A DNA stretch of 32,000 nt from Halanaerobium saccharolyticum (GCF_003259895.1 NZ_QLME01000001.1:26152-58151), one strand, 5' to 3'. Counted from the first letter of the stretch, positions 19,069 to 32,000 are shown. Notes: generated by a model from the letters alone, not told the origin. Translations and numbers: made by a program.

Positions 19069-20004
19069 CTAATACTCAGGAATTAATTTGTGATTATATA
19101 CTTCTTTTTGAGCTTTAATTACCTCTTCAGGATCAATTGTCTTGGCTAAAATCCTCTTAATCATTCTGCTGTTTTTATTAACCAAAATTACCGCATTACT
19201 GATATCTTTATTTTTGGCAGTCGATTTATCATTCTGCAGTTCAGTAAAGTTTATATTATCAAGGTCTTTAATCTCATCATAATTCCAGACTGCTGCATCT
19301 ATAGTTTTATTTTTTATATGCTCCATTATTTTCATGTAGGTCAATTCTATAAATTCTACATCCTGATTTTGACATTCCAGCTTTGTTAGTATCTTATGAT
19401 CAATAGAAGTTGAATCAAGTCCAACTTTCATCCCATTTTCAATTTTTGCAGCTTCCGGATCCGAAAAAACTATCACATGTTTAGAAAGATAGGTACCCGG
19501 TCCAAATTCACAAAAAAGTTCAAATTGATCCCGATCTTCATGATTCTGGGCAGCAAATTTAGATAAAACAATAAAATCATATTTATCATCTTTTAAGACA
19601 TTCAATCGTTTTTCCGCACCTCTGGTATAGGCAATACTGTAATTAAAATCTGCTTTTTTAAACTCCTGATTTAATCCAGTTGCCAGCCCCTCATAACGCA
19701 GAGAATAAGGCAGTGGTAAAAGTCCCATTATCATTCCTAAATCTGCAATTTCCCAGAGCAGGTGATAATCTAAATCAAGAATATAGCTGCCTAAATGTCC
19801 TTTTGATTCCAGCTCTACAGCCTGATGTTCAGTTAAAAATGATATTGCAGACTGGATAGTGCCTCGTCCGGTGTTATAGCGCTCCGCATAACCACTAATT
19901 GTATCAATTCTTTCGCCTTTGTTTTTTAAGAAAAAATCCCGGGCCAGCATTGAAGTTATGAAGCCGATTTTTGACATCATTTTGCTCTTTATTTCAGAAA
20001 CCAT
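19069..20004 (-). CDS. yhfZ: YhfZ-like transcriptional regulator (N-terminal winged HTH plus C-terminal binding-protein-like domain)
   Basis: 311 aa, against ~301 aa for E. coli YhfZ. HTH-like segment ISGYAERYNTGRGTIQSAISFLTEHQAVELESKGHLGSYI. GGAGG lies 6 nt upstream of the ATG at 20004. First gene of the operon. Confidence 0.75.
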   Translation of the reverse strand: MVSEIKSKMMSKIGFITSMLARDFFLKNKGERIDTISGYAERYNTGRGTIQSAISFLTEHQAVELESKGHLGSYILDLDYHLLWEIADLGMIMGLLPLPYSLRYEGLATGLNQEFKKADFNYSIAYTRGAEKRLNVLKDDKYDFIVLSKFAAQNHEDRDQFELFCEFGPGTYLSKHVIVFSDPEAAKIENGMKVGLDSTSIDHKILTKLECQNQDVEFIELTYMKIMEHIKNKTIDAAVWNYDEIKDLDNINFTELQNDKSTAKNKDISNAVILVNKNSRMIKRILAKTIDPEEVIKAQKEVYNHKLIPEY

Positions 20005-20023
20005 TTAATTCCTCCTTTTTAAT

Positions 20024-20080
20024 ATACAATTTTCTGTACAATAGAATAAAAATAAAATACAATGTACTGTATTCTGTATA
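20024..20080. promoter_or_regulatory. Two inverted-repeat operator candidates, ATACA-N6-TGTA(C/T), plus an extra TCTGTATA half-site
   Basis: ATACAattttcTGTAC at 20024-20039 and ATACAatgtacTGTAT at 20057-20072 are 33 bp apart centre to centre. TCTGTATA lies at 20073-20080. All sit between the predicted -10 and the yhfZ-like RBS. Confidence 0.5.
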
Positions 20081-20082
20081 TT

Positions 20083-20111
20083 AGTTTAGCATAAGATTTA
20101 AAATTTTGCAA
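20083..20111 (-). promoter_or_regulatory. Sigma-A type promoter of the yhf-like operon
   Basis: On the minus strand: TTGCAA (20111-20106), a 17-nt spacer, then TAAACT (20088-20083), directly downstream of a terminator. Confidence 0.5.
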
Positions 20112-20130
20112 CTATTAATCTAAGTTATCT

Positions 20131-20164
20131 AAAAACTGCAGCCCATAACTGCCTGAGCTGCAGC
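20131..20164 (-). terminator. Rho-independent terminator after the NagB-like gene
   Basis: On the minus strand, GCTGCAG/CTGCAGC stem arms (plus-strand 20136-20142 and 20157-20163) are followed by TTTTT (plus-strand A-run 20131-20135). Confidence 0.65.
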
Positions 20165-20201
20165 CATTACAATCTTAAAATCATTTATTTAAACTCATAT
20201 T

Positions 20202-20939
20202 TTATAACAATTTAGCCGAATCTTCATCTAAAAAGACATCTGTACTTTTATGCTCTTTTAAAATTGAGGCAGGACAGTCAACTGTAACTTCATCACCAGC
20301 TAAACAATTCTTAACTGCCTCAGCTTTTCTGGCGCCGGGTACTGTGCAGATAATATTTTCGGACTTCATAATTTGTTTAACTGTCATCGTAATCGCATTT
20401 TTTGGAACATCAGCAATAGTCTCAAACCAGCCTTCTTTAACCTGCTGTTTTCTGGAAACATCATCCAGCTCAACAATAATAAATGGATCCTCTTCTTCAA
20501 AATCTGCAGGTGGTTCATTAAAAGCCAGATGACCATTTTCACCTATGCCAACAAATGCAGCCTGAATTTTATCTTCTTCCTTAATTTTTTGATTTAAGCT
20601 CTGACATTCTTTTTCCGGATCATTCATCCCATCTATTAAGTTAATTTCTTTTAATTCACCAACTTCAGAGATAAAGTTTTCTTTAATATATTTTCTAAAA
20701 CTAGCCTTATGAGTTTCGTCTAGCCCGAGATATTCATCTAAATGATAAAGTTTAGTTTTGGACCAATCTATATCATCGAATTCTACTAATTCAGCTAAAA
20801 AATCAAGTTGAGAATTACCGGTAGCGATGATAAATACTGCTTCCCCATCTTTTTCGATGCTTTCAATCAAAATTTCTCTAGCTCTTTCTGCGGCGTATTT
20901 ACTTGTTGTTTTTTTGTCCTGATAAACATTTATTTTCAT
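20202..20939 (-). CDS. Glucosamine-6-phosphate deaminase/isomerase family protein (NagB-like)
   Basis: 245 aa. Motifs ATGNSQLDF, YHLDEYLGL and GIGENGHLAFNEP align by eye to NagB motifs (PTGGTP, NMDEYVGL, GVGNDGHIAFNEP). AGGAGG RBS. Confidence 0.8.
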   Translation of the reverse strand: MKINVYQDKKTTSKYAAERAREILIESIEKDGEAVFIIATGNSQLDFLAELVEFDDIDWSKTKLYHLDEYLGLDETHKASFRKYIKENFISEVGELKEINLIDGMNDPEKECQSLNQKIKEEDKIQAAFVGIGENGHLAFNEPPADFEEEDPFIIVELDDVSRKQQVKEGWFETIADVPKNAITMTVKQIMKSENIICTVPGARKAEAVKNCLAGDEVTVDCPASILKEHKSTDVFLDEDSAKLL

Positions 20940-21069
20940 TTTTTGTTTCCTCCTAAGAAGATTGTATGGCTTAAATTTTTAGACTTAATTTATATTTCAC
21001 GGTCAGTATTACTCTCCCTGCATTTTAGAAAATATTTTTAAACTTATTAAATCCTTAAATTGCAATGAT

Positions 21070-21109
21070 AAAAATCCTGCCGTTTTTAAAATTACTTAAA
21101 ACAGCAGGA
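21070..21109 (-). terminator. Rho-independent terminator after the aldolase gene
   Basis: TCCTGCCGTTTT (21075-21086) pairs with AAAACAGCAGGA (21098-21109) with one mismatch. A plus-strand A-run at 21070-21074 gives the U-tract on the minus strand. Confidence 0.65.
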
Positions 21110-21195
21110 CTCTAGTTACTATTTAATTAGATTTATTAACAACACCCAGGCCGCAATTTGATTTCAGGACTTATTCTTTATATTTTATATCAGCT

Positions 21196-21834
21196 CTAAA
21201 CTTCTCTGGCCTTTGCTATTTTTTCAACAAAAGCCGCCGCAGTTTGAGTCACTTTATCAAAATCTCCAGTTTTGGCACCAGCAGTAAGGGAACTGCCAAC
21301 TCCAACCGCTGCACTTCCGGCCTTAATCCATTCTGCAACATTATCCAGACTAACTCCTCCAGTAGGCAGCAGTGGTGCCTGGGGTACTGGTCCTTTAATT
21401 GCTTTGATGATCTTTGGTCCAAAAAGCGAGGCCGGGAAAATTTTAACTAAATCAGCACCCGCTTCCATAGCTTTTACTACCTCAGTTACTGTCATTGCTC
21501 CCGGGATTACAGGCTTCTGATATCTATTAGCTAACTTAACCATCTCCTCATTAAAAGAGGGACTGACAATGTATTCCGCCCCTGCCAGAATACAGGTTCT
21601 AGCAGTTTCGGCATCCAGAACAGAACCAGCTCCTATTATGATCTCCTCTCCCTCAAATTCTTTACTTAATTCAGAGATAACATCCACCGCTCCGGGAACT
21701 GTCATGGTGATTTCCAGACCTTTTATTCCTCCTTTTTTGACTGCCCGCGCAATCTTGACTGCCTCATCTCCATTTTGAGCTCTAATCACAGCAACGATAC
21801 CTGTTTCCTGCAGTTTATTAATTGTATTCATCAT
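21196..21834 (-). CDS. eda: KDPG / 4-hydroxy-2-oxoglutarate aldolase family protein (Eda-like)
   Basis: TIM-barrel class I aldolase pattern (GIVAVIRA, GGIKGLEITMT, VKIFPA, PTGGV). I moved the start to the ATG at 21834 (GGAAGG upstream). The longer ORF-track start at 21882 lies inside the kinase gene. Confidence 0.8.
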   Translation of the reverse strand: MMNTINKLQETGIVAVIRAQNGDEAVKIARAVKKGGIKGLEITMTVPGAVDVISELSKEFEGEEIIIGAGSVLDAETARTCILAGAEYIVSPSFNEEMVKLANRYQKPVIPGAMTVTEVVKAMEAGADLVKIFPASLFGPKIIKAIKGPVPQAPLLPTGGVSLDNVAEWIKAGSAAVGVGSSLTAGAKTGDFDKVTQTAAAFVEKIAKAREV

Positions 21835-23287
21835 AATCATCCTTCCGCTTAGTTTTTTGATACCAGTATTTATACTTCTCAAACCGCGACTGATAAAATT
21901 GATGCCGCTCTAAATTAAAATCGATAACTTTACCAGCTTCTGGCTGATAATTACTTAAATCTTTAATTTCTCCCAGAGCCTTTAGCCCCAGGATTATTGA
22001 TCCCATCGTCGAAGAATCTTTAAATTCCGATACAATCATTTTTCTTCCAAAAATATCGGCAGCCATCTGCAGCCACTTCTCAGAATTTGTAATACCACCA
22101 GAAATCCTTATTTTTTCCGGTTTTAAACCCATTTCTTCAATAATTAAATAGGACTGGTAAAGGTTGAATAAAACTCCTTCCAGAATTGAATAATATAAGT
22201 CGGCAGATAAATGGCTGCCTTTCAGCTCACAGAACTGGGCTTTTCGCTTATCCTGCCAGCCGGGACATCGCTCACCATAAATAAAAGGCAAAAAAATTGG
22301 AGCTTTATTTTTGTTTACATCTTTGAGAGAGTTTTCTAATTCCATGAAGTTAGAATCATTTTCTTTTATCTTATTTTTAAACCACTGAGTACAGTTGCCG
22401 GCCCCAGAAGTAGCTGCCCCGACTATCCTTTTTCCTTCAGCCCCATAATAGCACCAGGTAGCTGGTGCAGACGGAATTTTAGCTTTACTGGATGTAACCC
22501 GCAGGGCCCCGCTGGTGCCAACCGAGAGGGTCATCAGCTTAGATTTTAAACCACCTGCCGCTATCTGATTAAGAGCTCCATCTGGTCCGGGAATTAAGAC
22601 AGGCAACCCAGGTTTTAAGCCAAGTTTTAGCGCCGCTTTTTTAGTTAAGCCAGCCTGATAATTAAGTTTTTTTAGTGGTGATAACTGTTTGGCTGAAAGA
22701 CCGGCAAAATCAAGTATTTCCTGGTCCCAGCTGAGATCATGAATATTAAAGATCCCTGTTCCCGAAGCTGATGCTAGAGAAATTGCCCGGCTTTTAGTTA
22801 ATTTCTCAAAAATATATTCTGGTTTAGATGAAAGATAGATTTGATCCACTTTAAAGCTGCTTTTATCTAAATTCATAAACTTCCAGAGAGGATAAATACT
22901 GTGCACAGGACAGCCTGTTTTTTGATATATCTTTTGAGCTAATTTTTTCTTTTTTCTGTACTTTGACACTGTCTCACCGGCAGAGGTATCAGCCCAGGTT
23001 AAAATCTCAGTCAGGGGCTTTCTATCCTGATCTAAAAGCAGGAAGCTGTGCCAGGTGCTGACCAGAGTTATTAATTCTATCTTGTTTTTTTCTGCCTGAG
23101 TCAGATCATTAATTAACTGCACAGCAGTCTTGATAATAAAATTATATAAAAGCTGGGCTGACTGCCTTTCCATATCTCCAGTCGTCTGCTCATAATTTTT
23201 GCTTAGATTTTTAATAATTCCCTTTGCCCGGGAAAACAGTGTCACTTTAACAGCTGAAGTACTAAACTCCAGAGCCAGAATGTACAT
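21818..23287 (-). CDS. FGGY-family carbohydrate kinase (gluconokinase/xylulokinase-like)
   Basis: 489 aa. The N-terminus MYILALEFSTSAVKVTLF aligns to the FGGY phosphate-1 motif, and the C-terminal RISGGITNSEKWLQMAADIFG to the FGGY signature-2 region. GAGGAGG RBS. Confidence 0.8.
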   Translation of the reverse strand: MYILALEFSTSAVKVTLFSRAKGIIKNLSKNYEQTTGDMERQSAQLLYNFIIKTAVQLINDLTQAEKNKIELITLVSTWHSFLLLDQDRKPLTEILTWADTSAGETVSKYRKKKKLAQKIYQKTGCPVHSIYPLWKFMNLDKSSFKVDQIYLSSKPEYIFEKLTKSRAISLASASGTGIFNIHDLSWDQEILDFAGLSAKQLSPLKKLNYQAGLTKKAALKLGLKPGLPVLIPGPDGALNQIAAGGLKSKLMTLSVGTSGALRVTSSKAKIPSAPATWCYYGAEGKRIVGAATSGAGNCTQWFKNKIKENDSNFMELENSLKDVNKNKAPIFLPFIYGERCPGWQDKRKAQFCELKGSHLSADLYYSILEGVLFNLYQSYLIIEEMGLKPEKIRISGGITNSEKWLQMAADIFGRKMIVSEFKDSSTMGSIILGLKALGEIKDLSNYQPEAGKVIDFNLERHQFYQSRFEKYKYWYQKTKRKDDYDEYN

Positions 23288-23311
23288 TTTTTACCTCCTC
23301 AAATATCAATA

Positions 23312-24127
23312 TTAAACTCCAGAGTAAGCTGCAAAGCCGCCGTCAATTGGGATAATCGAACCATTTACAAAAGAAGAGGCATCTGAGGCCAGCCAGATTA
23401 CAGCTCCTATTAATTCTTCCGGACTGCCGTAGCGGTTCATTGGCGTATTATTTTTAATCTTTTTACCTCTTGCGGTTTCCTCGCCGGTTTCCTGATCAAT
23501 CAGTAAATACTTGTTTTGAGTTGTTAGTAAAAAGCCGGGAGCAATTGCATTTACTCTTATTTTTTCCGAAATATTTTGATTTAGATAAACCGCAAGCCAC
23601 TGGGTAAAATTACTGACAGCAGCCTTAGCTGCAGAATAAGCAATGGTTTTAGTCAGGGGACTGATAGCTGCCATCGAAGAAATATTTATAATACTCCCCT
23701 TCTCATTATTTGCAATTTCTTTTCCAAAAACCTGAGAAGTTAAAACAGTGCCTAAAAAATTAAGATTAAAGACCCATTTTATGGCATCCTCAGGCAGATC
23801 AAAAAAATCAAGCTCTTCACTGGTAGTTGCTTCTTTTTTATTACCGCCTGCCCCATTGATCAGAATATCCACTCTGCCAAATTCAGCTAACACTTCCTCT
23901 CTGGCATTTTTTAGACTCTCTTTATTTAAAACATCAGTTTTGACAGCTAAAACCTCACCGCCATTTTCTTTAATCTCAGCTGCTATCTCCAGGGCAGGCT
24001 CCAGATTAATATCTAAAAGTCCTATTTTCGCTCCCTGTTGAGCAAGTTCCAGCGCAATTTTGCTGCCTAAAACTCCACCGGCACCGGTTATTACCGCAAC
24101 TTGATCTTTAATATCAAAAATATCCAT
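23312..24127 (-). CDS. Short-chain dehydrogenase/reductase (resembles SDR-type mannonate/fructuronate oxidoreductases)
   Basis: TGAGGVLG cofactor motif and YSAAKAAV catalytic YxxxK. 271 aa. Confidence 0.8.
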   Translation of the reverse strand: MDIFDIKDQVAVITGAGGVLGSKIALELAQQGAKIGLLDINLEPALEIAAEIKENGGEVLAVKTDVLNKESLKNAREEVLAEFGRVDILINGAGGNKKEATTSEELDFFDLPEDAIKWVFNLNFLGTVLTSQVFGKEIANNEKGSIINISSMAAISPLTKTIAYSAAKAAVSNFTQWLAVYLNQNISEKIRVNAIAPGFLLTTQNKYLLIDQETGEETARGKKIKNNTPMNRYGSPEELIGAVIWLASDASSFVNGSIIPIDGGFAAYSGV

Positions 24128-24250
24128 TTTAAACCTCCTAATTTTCTCGCTAAATTTAATCTGTTATCTCCAATCAATCTTTTCTGAGCCTGAGTCCAGT
24201 CCTCTCCTAATTTCAGGCCAATCATTTGCATCCTAATTCTGGCTAATTTT

Positions 24251-25555
24251 TTATAAATCCCGGGCTGTCCAGAGACCGGTTGTCGGGTTGTCAATATAAA
24301 ATACTCGCTCAGCGTTGATCAAATTATTGAATCCATAATCAAACTGCGAAATTGGGTAGCGGGCAAGTGCTTTATCCAGGGGCAGACAACTGTGATTTAC
24401 CCCCTCTACTTCCTCCCGACTCAATTTATCAGTGGCAAAAGTGACTTTAAACCTGCCCTCAGTTGAGCCATGGATTAAGTGTGCTGCAGCTGATAAATTA
24501 TTTTTTAAATCAGCATTATTCTCGACTTCCTGCCTGATCTGCTCACTACCTCGATATCCATATTTTCTAATTAGCTGATCAACTTCTTCGTATTCTCCAA
24601 ATTCCTTTAAGCCGGGAGCGATTACAATTAGCTCCCCTCCGTCAGCAATAGCCAGTCTGGTTCTATAAATTGCCTTACAGCTTAACCAGGTTGATTTAAA
24701 TTCTTTTTTGTCCATGTAAACAACTACCTTTTCCAGCGGCTCGGAGACTTTAGTTATATTGTGCTTCTGACTTAATTTAACCGCCCACTTAAATATTTCT
24801 TTATCCCGACCAATATAAAGACCCAGCAGATCAGTCGTTCCGGTCTCTTTATTAACTTCGGTAGAATTAACAGTTAAAATATAATCAACATTTACATTTT
24901 TTAAGAAATGTTCTTCTGCATAATCATATAATTTGCGGACAGGAGTCTCCCCTCTGCCAAGTAAACGCTCTATCCCATAAACAGCACCCAGATAGTGAGA
25001 GATATTTATCATTTCTGCGCCACCACAGCCGACAAAAATATTTTTGTTGAAGTTTGACATACCAACAACCCCGTGGGGTAAAACCTGACCAACAGAGATT
25101 ACAAGATCATATTCGTCATTGACCAGTCTTTTATTTATTTTGACTTCAATTGACCTCTGCAGCTTCCCCTCAGAAATATTTTCGACAAAATCAGCGGGGA
25201 TTTCTCCTATTTTCTGAATTTCATTTTTAAAGTCATGAACCAGAAAATTATCAGGTGGAATCTCCTGGCCAAACATATCTCTTATTTCCTGTTCGGTCAT
25301 TGCTTTATGGGTTCCCAGGGCCGGCATAATATCAACTTGATAATCAGCCTGCAAAAGATTATATAATTCCCTGGTCAGTCTACCCGAACCCGAGTGTTTC
25401 CGGGTATAATCAGGTGGTACAATTAATATCCTGTCAATATCAGAAGCAATTTGAGCTGCATATTTCCTTAACAGTTCTTTTTCTTCTGCAGTCGATATTC
25501 TGTTAGAAACAGTTTTTCTTTCCAGGGCGAAACTTTTATTATTAATTTTTAACAC
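24251..25555 (-). CDS. LarA-like (DUF2088, lactate-racemase N-terminal domain) putative nickel-pincer-dependent 2-hydroxyacid racemase/epimerase
   Basis: 434 aa. The segments PPDYTRKHS, ALGTHKAM, VLPHGVVGMSNFNKN and NISHYLG line up by eye with the L. plantarum LarA motifs SDHTRP, ATGFHRP, ESHFFAGFSGGRK and ANHS. The start is uncertain: the GTG at 25555 directly abuts AGGAGG. Confidence 0.6.
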   Translation of the reverse strand: MLKINNKSFALERKTVSNRISTAEEKELLRKYAAQIASDIDRILIVPPDYTRKHSGSGRLTRELYNLLQADYQVDIMPALGTHKAMTEQEIRDMFGQEIPPDNFLVHDFKNEIQKIGEIPADFVENISEGKLQRSIEVKINKRLVNDEYDLVISVGQVLPHGVVGMSNFNKNIFVGCGGAEMINISHYLGAVYGIERLLGRGETPVRKLYDYAEEHFLKNVNVDYILTVNSTEVNKETGTTDLLGLYIGRDKEIFKWAVKLSQKHNITKVSEPLEKVVVYMDKKEFKSTWLSCKAIYRTRLAIADGGELIVIAPGLKEFGEYEEVDQLIRKYGYRGSEQIRQEVENNADLKNNLSAAAHLIHGSTEGRFKVTFATDKLSREEVEGVNHSCLPLDKALARYPISQFDYGFNNLINAERVFYIDNPTTGLWTARDL

Positions 25556-26492
25556 CTCCTGCTGAATTATTCTCTAACATTGCAATTAAATTTCTGGTGG
25601 CTGCAGCTGCCATTTTCTCCACTGCCTCTTTTGTATTGGCACCCATGTGGGGAGTCAGCAGAAAATTATCAAGTTCTAACAATTGATGTTTACCTGGAGG
25701 TTCTTCCGAAAAAACATCACAGGCTGCTGACTCAAGCTCATTGTTTTTCAGTGCCTGATATAACTCAGCTTCATCAATCAGACCTCCCCGGGAAGTATTG
25801 ACCAGCACAGCATCACCTTTCAGGAGGGAAAGTTCTTTTCTGGAAATGAAATTTTGGGTTTCCTTATTTAAGGGTAAATGCAGCGAAATAAAATCTGCTT
25901 CCTGCAGCAGTCTATCCTTATCCAGCATCTGCAGCTTATATTTTCTGATGAATTGACTATCATCAAAATAGGGGTCATAGACTTTGATAGACTTAAATAT
26001 TCCAGCAGCTCTTTTTACTACTTCTCTGCCAATTTTTCCACAGCCAATTAAACCTAAAGTCTTGTCAGTCAGTTCTACTCCTTTGATCCGCTTCCACTCC
26101 CCTTTTTTTACGCTTTTAACTGCCTGAGGCAAATTACGGGCAGCTGCAAAGATCAGACCCAGAGCTAACTCTGCTACAGAAACATTATTGGTGCCGGGAG
26201 TATTGTCCAGTTTAATGTTTTTCTCTCTGGCAGCTTCCAGATCAATATTATCCATTCCCACCCCATATTTAGAAATTGCTCTGAGATTGGAAGCATTTTC
26301 AATTACCTTGCTGCTGATTGGATCAATACCAATTATGATTCCAACCACATCTTCTGCTAAATTGAGCATCTGTTTTTCAGTAAAAGTTTTTCCGGTATCA
26401 TTAAAAATCGGCTGATAATCTCCCAGCAGCGGCATCATTTTATCTCTAATTTTGTAATATGATTTTGGGGTAATCAAAATTTTTTCTGACAA
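25542..26492 (-). CDS. D-isomer-specific 2-hydroxyacid dehydrogenase (PGDH-like)
   Basis: NAD motif GLIGCGKIGREV, NTSRGGLIDE and TPHMGANT (catalytic His). TTG start at 26492 with GGAGG 7 nt upstream. 316 aa. Confidence 0.85.
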   Translation of the reverse strand: MSEKILITPKSYYKIRDKMMPLLGDYQPIFNDTGKTFTEKQMLNLAEDVVGIIIGIDPISSKVIENASNLRAISKYGVGMDNIDLEAAREKNIKLDNTPGTNNVSVAELALGLIFAAARNLPQAVKSVKKGEWKRIKGVELTDKTLGLIGCGKIGREVVKRAAGIFKSIKVYDPYFDDSQFIRKYKLQMLDKDRLLQEADFISLHLPLNKETQNFISRKELSLLKGDAVLVNTSRGGLIDEAELYQALKNNELESAACDVFSEEPPGKHQLLELDNFLLTPHMGANTKEAVEKMAAAATRNLIAMLENNSAGGVKN

Positions 26493-26538
26493 CTTTATTC
26501 CTCCTATAGGTTATTCCATTTGTTTTTCTATTTAATGA

Positions 26539-27279
26539 CTAATCCATTAGAAATCCACCATTGACATCAATTATTTCGCCAGTGATAAAACTGGCAGCAT
26601 CTGATAAGAGGAAACTTACAGCTCCTGCAACATCTTCCGGCTGTCCCAGCCTCTTAAGTGGAATCTCAGAAATTATTCGCTTTCTTTTTTCTTCCGACCA
26701 TTCTGAACTCATATCGGTTTCTATTGCATGGGGAGCAACTCCATTAACTGTAACATTATAGGGAGCTAAATCTCTGGCAAATGTTTTAGTCATTCCATCC
26801 AGGGCTGCCTTGGAGGGACCATAGCCTGGAGCAGAAGTTATATCTCCCATTTTGCCAGCTATAGAAGAGATATTTACAATCCTTCCCTGCTTCTGTTCTT
26901 TAAATTGAGGCCGTAAATATTTGCAGAATAGAAATGCACCTCTGGTATTTACTGCAAAAACCTGATCCCAGTCAGAGATACTTATTTCTTCTCCTACTCT
27001 TCTTTTGATAATCCCCGCATTATTTACCAGGGCCTCAATCTGACCGTATTCTTCTATAACTCCCTTAACCACTCTTGCAACATCTTCTTCCCTGGCTACA
27101 TTGCAGTGTTTAAATCTGTACTCTCCCTCAAAATCAGAACTCTTTTCTTCTAATTTCTGACCTTCATCCTGATTAATGTCACATATTACTGCAGTAAAAT
27201 TATTTTCAACCAATCGGTCAGCAATTGCTCTTCCAATCCCATTAACAGCACCTGTTACAATTGCAACTTTAGTTTCCAT
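26539..27279 (-). CDS. Short-chain dehydrogenase/reductase (FabG-like)
   Basis: TGAVNGIGRAIA cofactor motif, NNAG, and YGPSKAAL catalytic YxxxK. 246 aa. Confidence 0.85.
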   Translation of the reverse strand: METKVAIVTGAVNGIGRAIADRLVENNFTAVICDINQDEGQKLEEKSSDFEGEYRFKHCNVAREEDVARVVKGVIEEYGQIEALVNNAGIIKRRVGEEISISDWDQVFAVNTRGAFLFCKYLRPQFKEQKQGRIVNISSIAGKMGDITSAPGYGPSKAALDGMTKTFARDLAPYNVTVNGVAPHAIETDMSSEWSEEKRKRIISEIPLKRLGQPEDVAGAVSFLLSDAASFITGEIIDVNGGFLMD

Positions 27280-27327
27280 TTAAATCTCCTTTCTTAAGCT
27301 TAAATTAGATCTTAATCTCAAATCATC

Positions 27328-28608
27328 TTAGTTAAAAATCAAATTCGGTAAAAATATTACTAATTGAGGAAAAAACACTAACAAGATTATGACTGAAAAT
27401 AATGCTAATAAAAATGGATAACTTTCTTTCATATATTCACCAACTGAGCATTCCATCACCGAGCAGACTGAGTACATGGCAACTCCAACCGGAGGTGTTA
27501 ACAATCCCATGGCACAGATTATAACCATCACTACTCCAAAATGTACAGGGTCAATTCCAATTCTGGTAATTACAGGCACCAGAATTGAGGTTAAAAGCAA
27601 GATTATAACTGTTGAATCAATGAACATTCCCAGAAAGAATAAAAATGTGAGGATTATTAAAAATATTACCTGAGGACTGTCGCTAATATTTAATAAAAAA
27701 CTTGTTAAAATAACAGGTATTCTGTCCCAGACAATTCCGTAGCTAAATAGTGAGGACAGCGATATTAAAAAGATGATCATTCCTACATCACCAATTGTAT
27801 CCTTAACCGAATTGACAAATCGCTGCCAGCTCAGTTCTTTATAGATCAGGACTCCAATTACAATTGCATAGACTGCTGCAAATGAGCCAGCCTCTGAGGG
27901 AGTCATTAAACCAAATCTTAAACCAACAATTAAAATCACCGGAAATAAAAGGGCCCAGATGCTTTTAATAAAAGTTGGTATAATTTCATCAATCGAGGCC
28001 ATTTCTTCTCTTTCTGGAGCATAGCCTTTTTTCCTGGAGGTGATAGTAACAGCAATCATTAAAAAAGCCATCATCATTAATCCAGGCACAATTCCACCTG
28101 TAAAAAGTCTTCCAATTGAGATTTCACCAATGTTTCCATAAAGCACCAGACCAATCCCCGGAGGAACCGCGATACAAATCAGGGCTGAAAAACCAATAAT
28201 TGCAGCTGAATAGCCTTTTTCATATCCCTTTTTTGTCATATCCGGCCCCAAAATTCTGGCCTGCATTGAAGAATCGGCAATTGCAGATCCGGATACTCCT
28301 CCCATTAAGGTACTTAATACTACAGTAACCTGAGCCAGGGTTCCATATAAATGGCCGGCCAGTACTGACGCTAAATCTAATAATCTGCTAGTAATTCCTG
28401 TATTATTTAATAAATTTCCGGCCAGCATAAACATGGGTATTGCCAGCAGAGTAAAGCTCTGTGTTTCTGATAAAACTAATTGAACTGGCATTGTATAGGG
28501 CAGTGCCGGTTCCTGCATGAAAAAGAAAAACCCGGAAATTCCAATTGCAAAAGCAACGGGCATCCCCATTATTAAAAATAATGCAAATATAATTATTACT
28601 TCCAGCAT
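27328..28608 (-). CDS. dctM: TRAP transporter large permease subunit
   Basis: 426 aa polytopic membrane protein of the size and composition typical of DctM, next to DctQ-like and DctP-like genes. Confidence 0.85.
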   Translation of the reverse strand: MLEVIIIFALFLIMGMPVAFAIGISGFFFFMQEPALPYTMPVQLVLSETQSFTLLAIPMFMLAGNLLNNTGITSRLLDLASVLAGHLYGTLAQVTVVLSTLMGGVSGSAIADSSMQARILGPDMTKKGYEKGYSAAIIGFSALICIAVPPGIGLVLYGNIGEISIGRLFTGGIVPGLMMMAFLMIAVTITSRKKGYAPEREEMASIDEIIPTFIKSIWALLFPVILIVGLRFGLMTPSEAGSFAAVYAIVIGVLIYKELSWQRFVNSVKDTIGDVGMIIFLISLSSLFSYGIVWDRIPVILTSFLLNISDSPQVIFLIILTFLFFLGMFIDSTVIILLLTSILVPVITRIGIDPVHFGVVMVIICAMGLLTPPVGVAMYSVCSVMECSVGEYMKESYPFLLALFSVIILLVFFPQLVIFLPNLIFN

Positions 28609-28627
28609 TTATTATCTTCCTCCTAAA

Positions 28628-29155
28628 TTAATCACTTAATTGATCTACCTTTTCTTTATCTTTCATTTTAAGAGATGCTGCCTCTTTTGTTTTATAGACC
28701 TGACGCATTTTATTAACTGTGGAAATTAATAATAAAATTGAGCCAATGGGTACACTGAGGGTTGCCCAGGCATAACTGAGCTCCGGGATCCCCTGGAATG
28801 TTCTAAATCTCGTATTATAGGTCTGGATAAAACCAAATCTAATTAGATAGCCCAGAAAAACAACAATAATTAAGTAATTTGCTAAAGTAATATAGTACTG
28901 AGCTTTTTCCGGAAGTTTTAATACTATAAATTTTACACTTAAATGTCTATCCTGCCGCATCGCAACATCTGCACTAAAAAAAGCTGCCCAGGCAAAAAGA
29001 AAAGCAGAAATATCAATCGCCCAATTTAAAGGATGCCCTACTGCCCTGCCGATAGCGGACAGAAACACAATTATCATAATCAAAACTAAGAATACTCCTG
29101 AAATTATTTTTTCGACCTGACATATTTTATGATAAATATTTTTAGCAGTCTCCAA
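28628..29155 (-). CDS. dctQ: TRAP transporter small permease subunit
   Basis: 175 aa with 4 hydrophobic helices, located between the DctP-like and DctM-like genes. Confidence 0.8.
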   Translation of the reverse strand: METAKNIYHKICQVEKIISGVFLVLIMIIVFLSAIGRAVGHPLNWAIDISAFLFAWAAFFSADVAMRQDRHLSVKFIVLKLPEKAQYYITLANYLIIVVFLGYLIRFGFIQTYNTRFRTFQGIPELSYAWATLSVPIGSILLLISTVNKMRQVYKTKEAASLKMKDKEKVDQLSD

Positions 29156-29212
29156 CTATAAACCTCCTTAAGAACCCCGGCCAATTTTGACCGGGGCCAG
29201 CCTTATTAATTT

Positions 29213-30196
29213 TTACTCTATTGCTTCCATTTCTTCATAAATTTGCTCTCGCTCATCCATCAAATCTAATTCCTCATAGGCCTGCATTCCGGCTTCTCTA
29301 AATGCTTCCAGATCAACATCTTCCACAATAGTCATTCCTTCTTCCTGCACAGTCTGCTTTATTTCTTCAGTCTGTTCGGCTAATTTGCGGGAAGTTTCCA
29401 GACCGGCTCTATTGGACTCTTCAACTAAGACCTCCTGATAAGCTTCGGGTAAGCTCTCAAACCACTGATTACTTACAACCTGAAAGTTAACTAATAAAAA
29501 ATGTCTGGTTTCATTTACATAATCTAAAACTTCAAATAAATTTCCAGCAGGAATATTACTGTAAACTAACTCTGCTCCATCAACAGAACCCTGCTGAATA
29601 CCTGTATAGATATCACCAAAATTCATTGCTGTCGGCACAGCACCTAAAGCCTCAACCGACTGATGCCAGATTGGTGCAGGGGGTGTCCTGATCCTTAAAC
29701 CATCCAGATCCTCCGGACTTCTGACAGGTTCATTTGTCATAAAATGCCTGAATCCCTGAACCCAGGAGAAGGAAAGAATTTTAATTCCATATTCTTCTGC
29801 CAGTTCTTCTTCCCATTTTTGCATTGTCGGTGTCTGACGTAATTTTTCTACATCTTCTATTGTGTCAACAAAATAAGGAGCGTTAACCACTGCCAGTCCG
29901 GGCACATAACTGCCTAACCTTGCTGCATCAGTATTCCAGGCTATAGGTACTCCAGATCTCAGCTGTTCCAGAACATCTTCCTCTACTCCTAATTGCGAAC
30001 TGGGAAAAACCTCAATCTGCAAATCTCCATCAGTTCTGTTTTCTACCCTTTCTGCCATGTTTACAAAACCTTCGTGAAAGGGATGGCTTTCATTTAGAAC
30101 ATGCCCATATCTTAATGTATACTCCTGGGCTGAGGCTGAAGCGGTGAGAACCAAAAGCAGTGATACTAAAACTACTAAACTCAAAATTTTCTTCAT
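29213..30196 (-). CDS. dctP: TRAP transporter substrate-binding protein
   Basis: 327 aa with a signal peptide (LLLVLTASASAQE) followed by the DctP-like start YTLRYGHVL. AAGGAGG RBS. Confidence 0.85.
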   Translation of the reverse strand: MKKILSLVVLVSLLLVLTASASAQEYTLRYGHVLNESHPFHEGFVNMAERVENRTDGDLQIEVFPSSQLGVEEDVLEQLRSGVPIAWNTDAARLGSYVPGLAVVNAPYFVDTIEDVEKLRQTPTMQKWEEELAEEYGIKILSFSWVQGFRHFMTNEPVRSPEDLDGLRIRTPPAPIWHQSVEALGAVPTAMNFGDIYTGIQQGSVDGAELVYSNIPAGNLFEVLDYVNETRHFLLVNFQVVSNQWFESLPEAYQEVLVEESNRAGLETSRKLAEQTEEIKQTVQEEGMTIVEDVDLEAFREAGMQAYEELDLMDEREQIYEEMEAIE

Positions 30197-30253
30197 AATT
30201 TAAAATCCTCCTTATTATTTTGCAAAATCAATCCCAATTGTGGACTTTTAGAA

Positions 30254-30287
30254 CAAAAAAAGAGACCGGGAAAAATAAATTTCCCGG
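30254..30287 (-). terminator. Rho-independent terminator upstream of the TRAP operon
   Basis: CCGGGAAA (30266-30273) pairs with TTTCCCGG (30280-30287). A plus-strand A-run at 30254-30261 gives the U-tract on the minus strand. Confidence 0.65.
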
Positions 30288-30310
30288 CCCATGGCCCCAG
30301 GTTAGTCTTC

Positions 30311-30556
30311 TTATTTGACTTTTTTGATCTGTATAACAAAATTTTCTTTTTGCCCTTTGACTAAAACCTTTTGATGTTTAAAAAGTTTATATATCTTATC
30401 TCCAGGTTGAAACTTCACTAAATCTGTCAGCTCTTCTTTATAATTTTTACTCAAAAAAGATCCCTCCCGGGAACCACCAAGACTAATTAAACCGACTGTT
30501 TGAAAGATTCTGATTTTTGAAACAAAAAGGGGGTCTTTAAAATTTACACCCTTCAA
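30311..30556 (-). CDS. Hypothetical 81-aa ORF, possibly the 3' part of a decayed small gene
   Basis: The frame is open but the only start is a TTG with no RBS. A strong orphan RBS lies ~95 nt upstream (30651-30659) and a terminator follows (30254-30287). I recognise no family with confidence. Confidence 0.3.
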   Translation of the reverse strand: MKGVNFKDPLFVSKIRIFQTVGLISLGGSREGSFLSKNYKEELTDLVKFQPGDKIYKLFKHQKVLVKGQKENFVIQIKKVK

Positions 30557-30744
30557 CGAATGTGATATAATTATTTAGTATTAACCCTAACAGAACAGCG
30601 CCAACTGAAATCTGTTACCCTTTTTATCTAATCTACTATCAATATTTAATCCCTCCTTTGTCTGCAAAAAGAGCAAGGGATAACTCTGTCCATTTATTGT
30701 TTCTGGACTTTAGTTTATAATTATCACATTTCAAGTTTATTATA

Positions 30745-30759
30745 GTTCTAATTTAGAAC
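30745..30759. promoter_or_regulatory. Palindromic operator candidate GTTCTA-ATT-TAGAAC upstream of the XRE gene
   Basis: Perfect 6-bp arms at 30745-30750 and 30754-30759, about 70 bp upstream of the ATG at 30828. Confidence 0.4.
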
Positions 30760-30827
30760 AATGTCAAGCTATTTTTATAAGTTTTTTTGTTAATTTTAAT
30801 TATTCGACAAAATTGGAGGAATTTTTT

Positions 30828-31181
30828 ATGACTTTCGGTGAAAACCTCAAAAAAGCTCGCAAAAATAAAGGTTTTACACAAAAAGATCTGGCAGAAATCG
30901 TGGGAATTAAACGCTCAACCATTGCCGGCTATGAAAGCAAAGATCAGGAACCAGCTTACAAAGTACTGAAAAAAATTGCTAAAGCATTAGACTGCAGCAT
31001 TGATACCCTGCTTGCTGTTGATTATGATAATTATAAAGTAAGTGAAAGTAATGTAACTAAAGAAATACTACATAATGATCAACTTAAATTATTATTTAAC
31101 GAAATACGAGAGATGTCTAATGACAAAATTGAGTTTTATAGAAATTTGATCAAATTTATTGAGTCTGAAAAAAATGAGTGA
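30828..31181 (+). CDS. XRE-family helix-turn-helix transcriptional regulator
   Basis: FGENLKKARKNKGFTQKDLAEIVGIKRSTIAGYESKDQEP is a canonical Cro/C1 HTH. I moved the start to the ATG at 30828 (GGAGG 8 nt upstream). The ORF-track TTG at 30813 overlaps that RBS. Confidence 0.85.
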   Translation: MTFGENLKKARKNKGFTQKDLAEIVGIKRSTIAGYESKDQEPAYKVLKKIAKALDCSIDTLLAVDYDNYKVSESNVTKEILHNDQLKLLFNEIREMSNDKIEFYRNLIKFIESEKNE

Positions 31182-31195
31182 GTTTAGTAAAAGAA

Positions 31196-31234
31196 AACTC
31201 CTGTCAGCAATCGTACAAATGACCAACAGGAGTT
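31196..31234. terminator. Hairpin terminator between the convergent XRE and SIS genes
   Basis: AACTCCTGT (31196-31204) pairs with ACAGGAGTT (31226-31234). The A-rich tract upstream gives a U-tract for the minus-strand gene. Confidence 0.6.
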
Positions 31235-31295
31235 CTTAATTATCTATTCTTTTTAGTTTTACCCGATACAAATTAAATAAGCTGATGTATCCAGT

Positions 31296-32000
31296 TTATA
31301 AGTCTTTAATTCTTTTCCCATACTTTTGAGCCAATTTTTTATTATCTGCATCTGCTCCATCTATATTACCACTTTTATAAACTGGTATTTCCAGATCTTT
31401 TTCTTTCATAATTGCAATGACTTCGGCAATAATACCATTAATAATATAGGAAGCTGCAATAGTGGAAGCCGGAACAGCCTTTGTTATTTCAAAATCTATT
31501 ACTGCATCTCCATAAGGAGTATGGTTATCAAGCACATAATCTGCCACTTCAAATAATCTTTTCCCACTCTGATGTCTGGAGTCATTAGCTTTAGAATATT
31601 CTAGAGAAGTAAGAGCAATTACTTCTAAACCTTCTTTCTGGGCTTTAAGAGCTGCATCTATAGGGACAGAATTACGGCCAGAATTGGAAACCACCACCAT
31701 TAAATCTTTTTCCTGCAGCTCATAATTATCTAGAATAATCTCTCCATAAGCTTCTAAACGCTCCATCTTAGTGCTTTTAATAGCACCTTGATCCAGCATA
31801 ACTCCCGAGTCAAAAATTGGGCTCATAACTGCCAGTCCTCCAGCTCTGTAAAAAACTTCTTCTGCCAACATATGAGAATGACCTGAACCAAAAACATGGA
31901 TTATACCCTCATTATTAATTGTTTCTACAAACTTTTCTGCTATTTTCTTTACTTTATCTCTTTCATTTTTATCGATTGCTTTTATAATCTCAGATATTTT
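31296..32000 (-). CDS. SIS-domain protein (UPF0309-like sugar-phosphate isomerase/binding family); the N-terminus lies outside the window
   Basis: The reading frame continues in phase upstream of the ORF-track Met to the window edge (...AEKFVETINNEGIIHVFGSGHSHMLAEEVFYRAGGL...). VVSNSGRNSVPID is a SIS phosphosugar-binding loop. Confidence 0.8.
   Translation of the reverse strand, partial: KISEIIKAIDKNERDKVKKIAEKFVETINNEGIIHVFGSGHSHMLAEEVFYRAGGLAVMSPIFDSGVMLDQGAIKSTKMERLEAYGEIILDNYELQEKDLMVVVSNSGRNSVPIDAALKAQKEGLEVIALTSLEYSKANDSRHQSGKRLFEVADYVLDNHTPYGDAVIDFEITKAVPASTIAASYIINGIIAEVIAIMKEKDLEIPVYKSGNIDGADADNKKLAQKYGKRIKDL

Follow-up and report, generated by a model that had tools for sequence, protein, structure and literature searches.

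In Thermotoga, conversion of D-mannonate to D-gluconate has been demonstrated for the LarA-family epimerase GntE2 (LarAH20), and the route runs from hexuronate through fructuronate, mannonate, gluconate and 6-phosphogluconate to ribulose-5-phosphate (Desguin et al. 2020, PMC7583248). D-Gluconate 2-epimerase activity was demonstrated for LarA groups 19 and 20. For their sister group 18, which corresponds to the family model NF052594 ('nickel-dependent putative hexonate epimerase') and is labelled G2E3 in dataset S2 of that study, a hexonate substrate was only hypothesised, and the commonest gene neighbours are short-chain dehydrogenases/reductases (SDRs) and 6-phosphogluconate dehydrogenase (gnd) (PMC7583248). 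Another described system is the L-gulonate pathway of Haemophilus influenzae, made up of the tripartite ATP-independent periplasmic (TRAP) transporter GulPQM and the proteins GulD, UxuB, UxuA, KdgK and KdgA (PMC5788505). Our literature search found no paper linking nickel-pincer enzymes with mannonate and glucuronate beyond two surveys from the Desguin group. Here we analyse a nine-gene operon of Halanaerobium saccharolyticum that encodes a LarA group-18 homologue (LarAH18); it occupies positions 21196-30196 on the minus strand of a 32,000-nt stretch (GCF_003259895.1, NZ_QLME01000001.1:26152-58151), referred to below as the window. On balance, we favour a core pathway in which a hexonate would be imported by a TRAP transporter, brought to D-mannonate by SDR redox steps, inverted at C2, phosphorylated by an FGGY kinase, and passed on either through Gnd or through a D-isomer-specific 2-hydroxyacid dehydrogenase (2HADH) and an Eda-type aldolase.

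Calling of open reading frames (ORFs) and assignment to Pfam and NCBIfam families fill the operon region with nine genes (Table 1). In the direction of transcription these are dctP, dctQ and dctM, which supply all three TRAP components side by side, followed by the genes for a generic SDR (SDR1), 2HADH, LarAH18, a second SDR of the D-mannonate oxidoreductase type (SDR2), the FGGY kinase and Eda, an aldolase for 2-keto-3-deoxy-6-phosphogluconate (KDPG). Neighbouring genes are separated by 19-123 nt or overlap; overlaps occur between the gene for 2HADH and that for LarAH18 (14 nt) and between the FGGY kinase gene and eda. A comparison genome of H. saccharolyticum carries all nine in identical order with 83-96% amino acid identity, and the gene set is also present in four genomes of other genera; a locus search with a single protein as the query returned H. 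saccharolyticum only. A preliminary description of this region had listed nine co-directional genes and had noted that no dehydratase, PfkB-type kinase or transcription factor lies among them; the ORFs and family assignments agree on both counts. With a recurrence far beyond chance, the nine-gene unit is confirmed as a real, conserved sugar-acid operon.

The LarA-like protein scores above the NF052594 cut-off and aligns to GntE2 (PDB 4nar) at 118 bits. In an alignment with 17 homologues and 4nar, it keeps the catalytic and cofactor motifs PPDYTR, LGTH, LPH, NFNK, ISH and CK; equivalents of the catalytic Asp/His/His/Lys and of the Arg/Lys/His that bind the nickel-pincer nucleotide (NPN) are present. 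A larE-larB-larC operon is located at C2:193818-196861, where LarC is recognised with 480 bits and the adjoining AIRC-type (LarB-like) and PP-loop (LarE-like) ORFs match generic Pfam models only.

We compared the locus with 300 sampled genomes of the phylum, 19 of which encode a group-18 enzyme above the cut-off, and fetched the neighbourhoods of these genes. SDR2 orthologues (56-63% identity, in 9 other loci) and FGGY orthologues (37-42% identity) repeatedly adjoin the group-18 epimerase. The triad SDR2-FGGY-LarAH18 stands directly beside gnd in genomes G040 and G262; in G183 gnd lies between SDR2 and LarAH18, with no FGGY gene called, and in G227 it adjoins LarAH18-SDR2. At seven LarAH18 loci the flanking genes include one for a uronate isomerase of the BH0493 type (PDB 2q08, 448 bits) and/or one for the fructuronate-tagaturonate epimerase UxaE (6il9, 520 bits). 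The window kinase has both FGGY domains, and among PDB entries it matches the gluconate kinase 3gbt best. All FGGY proteins that adjoin LarAH18 and SDR2, those of gnd clusters included (loci L036, L038, L042 and L047-L050), begin with LE-x-ST-x-SAK, and more distant FGGY paralogues carry the canonical D-x-GTT motif. Since the LE-x-ST-x-SAK terminus is common to all of them, the LarAH18-linked kinases form one orthologous group, whether the cluster contains gnd or eda. Because of the group-18 score and the gnd, isomerase and UxaE neighbours in other genomes, mannonate/gluconate interconversion followed by FGGY phosphorylation is the best-supported core of the pathway; the gene set of these neighbourhoods parallels the Thermotoga route. 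C2 epimerisation and then FGGY phosphorylation, offered as speculation in the preliminary description, is accordingly the part of its interpretation that fared best; taken as a whole, that interpretation is partly supported.

The long gene set GntR/SDR2/epimerase/FGGY/2HADH/Eda/DctPQM/SDR, with a regulator of the GntR/FCD type, is found in G158, G037, G281 and G160, and G003 and G227 hold partial versions that include RpiR, Gfo/Idh/MocA and zinc-dependent alcohol dehydrogenase genes. Every LarAH18 cluster that contains Eda has 2HADH adjacent to it or close by; 10 other genomes carry relatives of 2HADH (38-56% identity) next to Eda and/or LarAH18 or in their vicinity. The genome G042, complete in a single contig, has a relative with 46% identity directly adjoining Eda (L093, G042:C1:1897000-1916500) in a cluster that comprises a sigma-54 DagR-like regulator, a mannose-class phosphotransferase system (PTS), an Ldh_2-family dehydrogenase and a short NAD-type Gnd, with no LarA homologue. 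The L-specific and D-specific 2-hydroxyacid dehydrogenases of G042 could together replace the nickel epimerase. The 2HADH-Eda pair thus recurs as a module in the sugar-acid clusters of genomes with no detectable Edd-family gene. The puzzle of an aldolase without a dehydratase, raised for this operon at the outset, is conserved across loci rather than peculiar to this one.

From gene content, family membership, synteny and the cofactor genes, all directly observed, we infer every substrate and the order of the steps as follows. The TRAP transporter would import a hexonate-class acid, with L-gulonate, D-mannonate, D-fructuronate or a keto-aldonate fitting better than a hexuronate. A hexonate or keto-hexonate is likelier because no uronate isomerase is linked to the operon; and since neither UxaC nor the BH0493-type isomerase was detected in the four long-cluster genomes (G158, G037, G281 and G160), the substrate is probably not glucuronate or galacturonate. 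SDR1 and SDR2 would carry out C5 redox steps that end at D-mannonate, the NPN-dependent group-18 enzyme would invert C2 to give D-gluconate, and the FGGY kinase would produce 6-phosphogluconate, from which the genome's Gnd would lead into the pentose-phosphate pathway. 2HADH and Eda would provide a second conserved exit, working on position 2 of the (phospho)hexonate and delivering products at the triose level.

A number of observations weigh against this pathway. No member of group 18 has been assayed, and the specificity signature of the group is altered in the window protein, which reads PHGV for PHEV and WLSCK for WLGNK; the H. saccharolyticum orthologue is identical there. Both altered sites are among the three proposed substrate-recognition regions (PMC7583248). 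Among 18 aligned homologues, PHEV is read by 16 (the set outside Halanaerobium, with which this genome's second group-18 copy at C6 is counted), and 15 of these 16 carry (G/A)(N/G)K, as GNK or GGK, up to the catalytic Lys, the other (L051) combining PHEV with ACK. Among the 120 nearest database clusters, PHEV is found in 93, Gly or Ala after the catalytic His in 26 and Cys before the catalytic Lys in 38; on this evidence the window protein belongs to a real subclade with Gly/Ala and Cys signatures. With Gly in place of Glu behind the catalytic His and Cys in place of Asn ahead of the catalytic Lys, the protein may act on a different substrate, such as a phosphorylated hexonate or some other one, perhaps distinguished by its charge at the distal end.

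The transporter and several enzymes add to these reservations. DctP is 53% identical to Thermotoga maritima TM0322 (PDB 2hpg; structural match with Z 42.9), and in its AlphaFold model (pLDDT 92.7) the only close structure is again 2hpg, which has no assigned ligand. Liganded structures of solute-binding proteins (SBPs) are all ≤30% identical to DctP, so that its ligand is not inferable by homology, and carboxylate import by the TRAP system is what we infer. Profile searches give SDR1 and 2HADH no specific family assignment. An SDR1 orthologue (62% identity) adjoins dctM in G227, and the SDRs that take this place in the four long clusters are only 31-36% identical to SDR1; the best PDB matches of 2HADH are phosphoglycerate dehydrogenases and glyoxylate reductases. 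The FGGY kinase begins with LEFSTSAVK, without the canonical D-x-GT, and scores far below the GntK equivalog cut-off. LarC was not detected in G281 and G160, which belong to one genus, though their group-18 LarA gene is intact, and was found in G037; the two assemblies may be incomplete, or the epimerase may be unloaded and inactive there. Finally, the favoured pathway does not account for the supply of Eda's substrate without a dehydratase.

The second group-18 LarA homologue of this genome is located at G000:C6:1-9000 (L046), scores 594 bits and has the canonical PHEV; there are five LarA homologues in all. The L046 cluster also holds a dehydratase-like gene of the enolase superfamily (MR/MLE), a further D-2HADH, a further TRAP system and two GntR/FCD regulators. 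For sugar acids this genome is unusually well equipped, with several TRAP systems, four UxaC, four UxuA-type and four IlvD/Edd-family genes, and a further UxaC and UxuA-like pair lies ~18-21 kb past the window end (C1:75925-79355).

An Edd encoded elsewhere had been suggested as the missing dehydratase, and this suggestion is not supported in its literal form. Profile scoring of the four IlvD/Edd paralogues found none that scores as 6-phosphogluconate dehydratase (Edd): at best they reach 260-279 bits with the Edd model, whose cut-off is 708. One of the four is a true IlvD beside ilvE, and a second is above the IlvD cut-offs and stands beside an IclR regulator near UxaC. The remaining two are divergent and sugar-acid-dehydratase-like; one adjoins a DapA-like aldolase and the other a TRAP permease. 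An isomerase of the Ashwell pathway, UxuA and a PfkB kinase for 2-keto-3-deoxygluconate (KDG) are all lacking in the operon, though present elsewhere in the genome, where a second Eda adjoins two PfkB kinases and a single Gnd is encoded at C33. A classical Entner-Doudoroff pathway could be completed in trans from this inventory if an IlvD/Edd paralogue, or UxuA together with a PfkB KDG kinase, supplied KDPG for cleavage by the operon's Eda. By sequence, the latter is a canonical KDPG aldolase, ~50% identical to the T. maritima enzyme 1wa3, with its Schiff-base Lys, general-base Glu and carboxylate-binding Arg conserved (VKIFP, LEIT and AVIRA in the alignment). However, the second Eda is already accompanied by PfkB kinases, so that a dedicated copy in the operon would be redundant, and equivalent clusters are found where no such dehydratase was detected. 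Homology searches (six-frame HMM or protein searches) in G037, G281 and G160, draft genomes that are 95-97% complete, found no IlvD/Edd, UxuA, Gnd, UxaA/GarD-type dehydratase or acid-sugar-type enolase, and the cluster's Eda is the only one in each of them. Likewise, no IlvD/Edd match was obtained in G003, G227 or the complete genome G042. Hidden dehydratases were sought among the enolase-superfamily proteins of G037, G281 and G160, but the candidates were discarded, being dipeptide-epimerase/MLE-like, with two of the four beside NlpC/P60 peptidases. A dehydratase supplied in trans is possible in this genome and not in genomes of the G037 type, and we regard it as an unlikely explanation.

The same genomes bear on a branch that would need no dehydratase. 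Here 2HADH would oxidise 6-phosphogluconate (or gluconate before phosphorylation) so as to give 2-keto-6-phosphogluconate, and Eda would split it into hydroxypyruvate and glyceraldehyde-3-phosphate; hydroxypyruvate would be reduced to glycerate, possibly by 2HADH too, and enter glycolysis through glycerate kinase. Cleavage of 2-keto-6-phosphogluconate was proposed as a chemically plausible, hypothetical new-to-nature step (bioRxiv 10.1101/2025.11.21.689712), and discussion of this reaction to date has been confined to the design of synthetic pathways. The epimerase would provide the D-configured C2 for the D-specific dehydrogenase, and it has a reason to exist in such a scheme because that dehydrogenase cannot use mannonate. 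Every conserved enzyme is used, and the genes of the long clusters (SDR2-LarAH18-FGGY-2HADH-Eda) follow one another in the order of the suggested reactions. 2HADH most resembles dehydrogenases whose substrates are phosphorylated 2-hydroxyacids; a relative accompanies Eda also in the LarA-less PTS/Ldh_2/short-Gnd cluster of G042, and six of the genomes with the pair have no IlvD/Edd match, three of them (G037, G281 and G160) lacking detected Gnd, UxuA and UxaA as well. Glycerate kinase is present in four of the five genomes checked but was not found in G281. The operon's Eda, moreover, shows no obvious active-site change and looks like an ordinary KDPG aldolase, and we know of no Eda-family enzyme that uses a 3-hydroxylated 2-keto acid. 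The absences come from HMM searches of incomplete drafts, two of them without a LarC match, and a dehydratase of an unrecognised family could exist. We regard the dehydratase-free split, too, as unlikely.

Still less probable is a funnel of the ketogluconate/idonate type, in which the TRAP system would import a keto-aldonate (2-keto-D-gluconate, 5-keto-D-gluconate, 2,5-diketogluconate or 2-keto-L-gulonate) or L-idonate, and the enzymes would converge on 6-phosphogluconate with Eda as an accessory. 2HADH would act as a 2-ketoaldonate reductase or a KguD-like 2-keto-6-phosphogluconate reductase, the SDRs at C5, and the epimerase would correct C2. The 2HADH family does include 2-ketogluconate reductases (GhrB match 176 bits; PDB 9m0t 144 bits), both SDRs have sub-threshold matches to gluconate 5-dehydrogenase models, and the position of the G042 2HADH beside a short Gnd and an L-specific Ldh_2-family dehydrogenase fits C2 redox chemistry on phosphohexonates. 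Yet the scores against specific reductase models are all far below their cut-offs, the invariable Eda partner is left unexplained, and 6-phosphogluconate would have no fate where neither Gnd nor Edd is detected. A substrate that is already 3-deoxy (KDG, 5-keto-4-deoxyuronate, 2,5-diketo-3-deoxygluconate or a 3-deoxyhexonate), with the epimerase and D-2HADH converting 3-deoxyhexonate to KDG, a KduD-like SDR, FGGY phosphorylation to KDPG and cleavage by Eda, would account for a dedicated Eda without a dehydratase, and the overlap of the FGGY and eda genes and the altered specificity residues of the LarA-like protein would suit it, but it is very improbable: in other genomes gnd, uronate isomerase and UxaE accompany the same FGGY subfamily and SDR2, a setting that calls for 6-phosphogluconate hydroxylated at C3, and no protein at the SDR1 position reached a KduD model, nor does either window SDR reach the KduD cut-offs.

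Table 1. Genes and signals of the operon and its borders (window positions; scores in bits)
Feature	Position	Strand	Basis
DctP-type TRAP solute-binding protein	29213..30196	-	PF03480, 270 bits
DctQ small TRAP permease	28628..29155	-	PF04290, 88.9 bits
DctM large TRAP permease	27328..28608	-	TIGR00786, 417 bits vs cut-off 268; PF06808
SDR1, generic FabG/glucose-1-dehydrogenase-like oxidoreductase beside transporter	26539..27279	-	NF009466 239 bits, NF005559 225 bits
2HADH, phosphoglycerate-dehydrogenase-like	25542..26492	-	PF02826, PF00389
LarAH18, putative NPN-dependent hexonate 2-epimerase	24251..25555	-	NF052594, 592.1 bits vs cut-off 500
SDR2, D-mannonate oxidoreductase (fructuronate reductase) type	23312..24127	-	NF006132, 376.9 bits vs cut-off 281
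FGGY kinase, gluconokinase-like subfamily	21818..23287	-	PF00370, PF02782; TIGR01314 262.6 bits, below 648.55
Eda-type KDPG/KHG aldolase	21196..21882	-	NF005119 291.8 bits vs 238; TIGR01182 189.9 vs 156
Intrinsic terminator closing operon	~21070..21112	-	stem TCCTGCTGTTTT...AAAACGGCAGGA then T-run, read from sequence
Divergent XRE/RstR-family helix-turn-helix regulator gene	30813..31181	+	NF041951 73.8 bits, below cut-off 80
Consensus sigma-70 promoter TTGACA-17-TATAAT, aimed at dctP	30739..30767	-	12/12 match; ~540 nt upstream
Strong terminator directly upstream of dctP	30263..30290	-	11-bp stem + T-run; conserved in H. saccharolyticum

At the downstream border, the start of eda is probably the ATG at 21840 rather than position 21882, matching the 214-aa orthologue of H. 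saccharolyticum. NagB (20202-20939) was considered as a tenth operon gene and ruled out, as it has its own terminators. In the H. saccharolyticum comparison genome eda and nagB are separated by a module absent here, made up of a ROK regulator, NagA and a second TRAP system. The lone NagB is the remnant of this amino-sugar module (ROK regulator/small ORF/NagA/TRAP/NagB), which is intact there (L011:14649-21139); ~6 kb of the region are missing here by comparison. A yhf-type operon lies beyond NagB.

The preliminary description had called the operon regulator-less, which is true of its interior; no regulator of the GntR, LacI, IclR or RpiR families is present. Upstream, however, a divergent XRE gene begins 617 nt from dctP, an arrangement kept in H. 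saccharolyticum, and homologous clusters carry GntR/FCD, RpiR or LacI regulators; judged by position, the XRE gene is the only candidate regulator near the operon. The sigma-70 promoter aimed at dctP is identical in H. saccharolyticum. The terminator between this promoter and dctP may be either the end of a separate short upstream transcript or an attenuator, and no convincing sigma-70 promoter was found between this terminator and the ribosome-binding site of dctP. Transcription of the operon may therefore start at the upstream promoter and read through the terminator, or depend on a weak activator-dependent promoter. An Rfam scan of 20000-32000 with E values up to 1 gave chance-level matches only, and therefore no known riboswitch or leader ahead of dctP.

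A short ORF of ~47 codons is located under the consensus promoter, divergent from the XRE gene, at 30311-30454 on the minus strand. It lies inside a frame open from 30556, begins LSKNYKEELTDLVKFQPGDKIYKLF..., is preceded by a GGGAGGG ribosome-binding site and ends just ahead of the terminator. Its differences from H. saccharolyticum are mostly third-position and synonymous, and for this reason it is probably a real gene for a small protein.

With the hexonate pathway as the favoured interpretation, the core annotation would bring LarA group 18 and a distinctive FGGY subfamily, from halophilic and other anaerobes of the phylum, into the mannonate-to-gluconate shunt of Thermotoga. The operon core would thus be a new member of a predicted and partly validated route, and its extension by TRAP, 2HADH and Eda without a dehydratase is new. 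The recurrent pairing of 2HADH with a KDPG-type aldolase points to an unrecognised dehydratase or to a new split of phosphohexonates. The latter, if true, would be a natural Entner-Doudoroff variant that explains Eda-containing sugar-acid clusters without detected Edd, UxuA, UxaA or Gnd.

Compared with described systems, the operon resembles the classical Entner-Doudoroff gluconate route (GntK, Edd, Eda) in combining a gluconokinase-like kinase with Eda in one unit, but its kinase is of the FGGY type, and no Edd lies in the operon or scores as such in the genome. With the L-gulonate pathway of H. influenzae it would have in common a TRAP-imported hexonate, two C5 redox steps to D-mannonate and a KDPG aldolase at the end. 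In contrast to that pathway, UxuA and the PfkB-type KdgK are replaced by a LarA-type epimerase, an FGGY kinase and a D-2HADH, and the SBPs are only ~23% identical. The hexuronate shunt of T. maritima similarly clusters an SDR, a LarA-family C2 epimerase and an FGGY kinase and has the NPN cofactor chemistry in common, and relatives of the window triad also carry gnd, uronate isomerase and UxaE. Unlike the shunt, the window has an epimerase of group 18 instead of group 20, a gnd that is unlinked, no linked isomerase or UxaE and a local regulator of a different type, and it adds a TRAP transporter, a second SDR, a D-2HADH and Eda.

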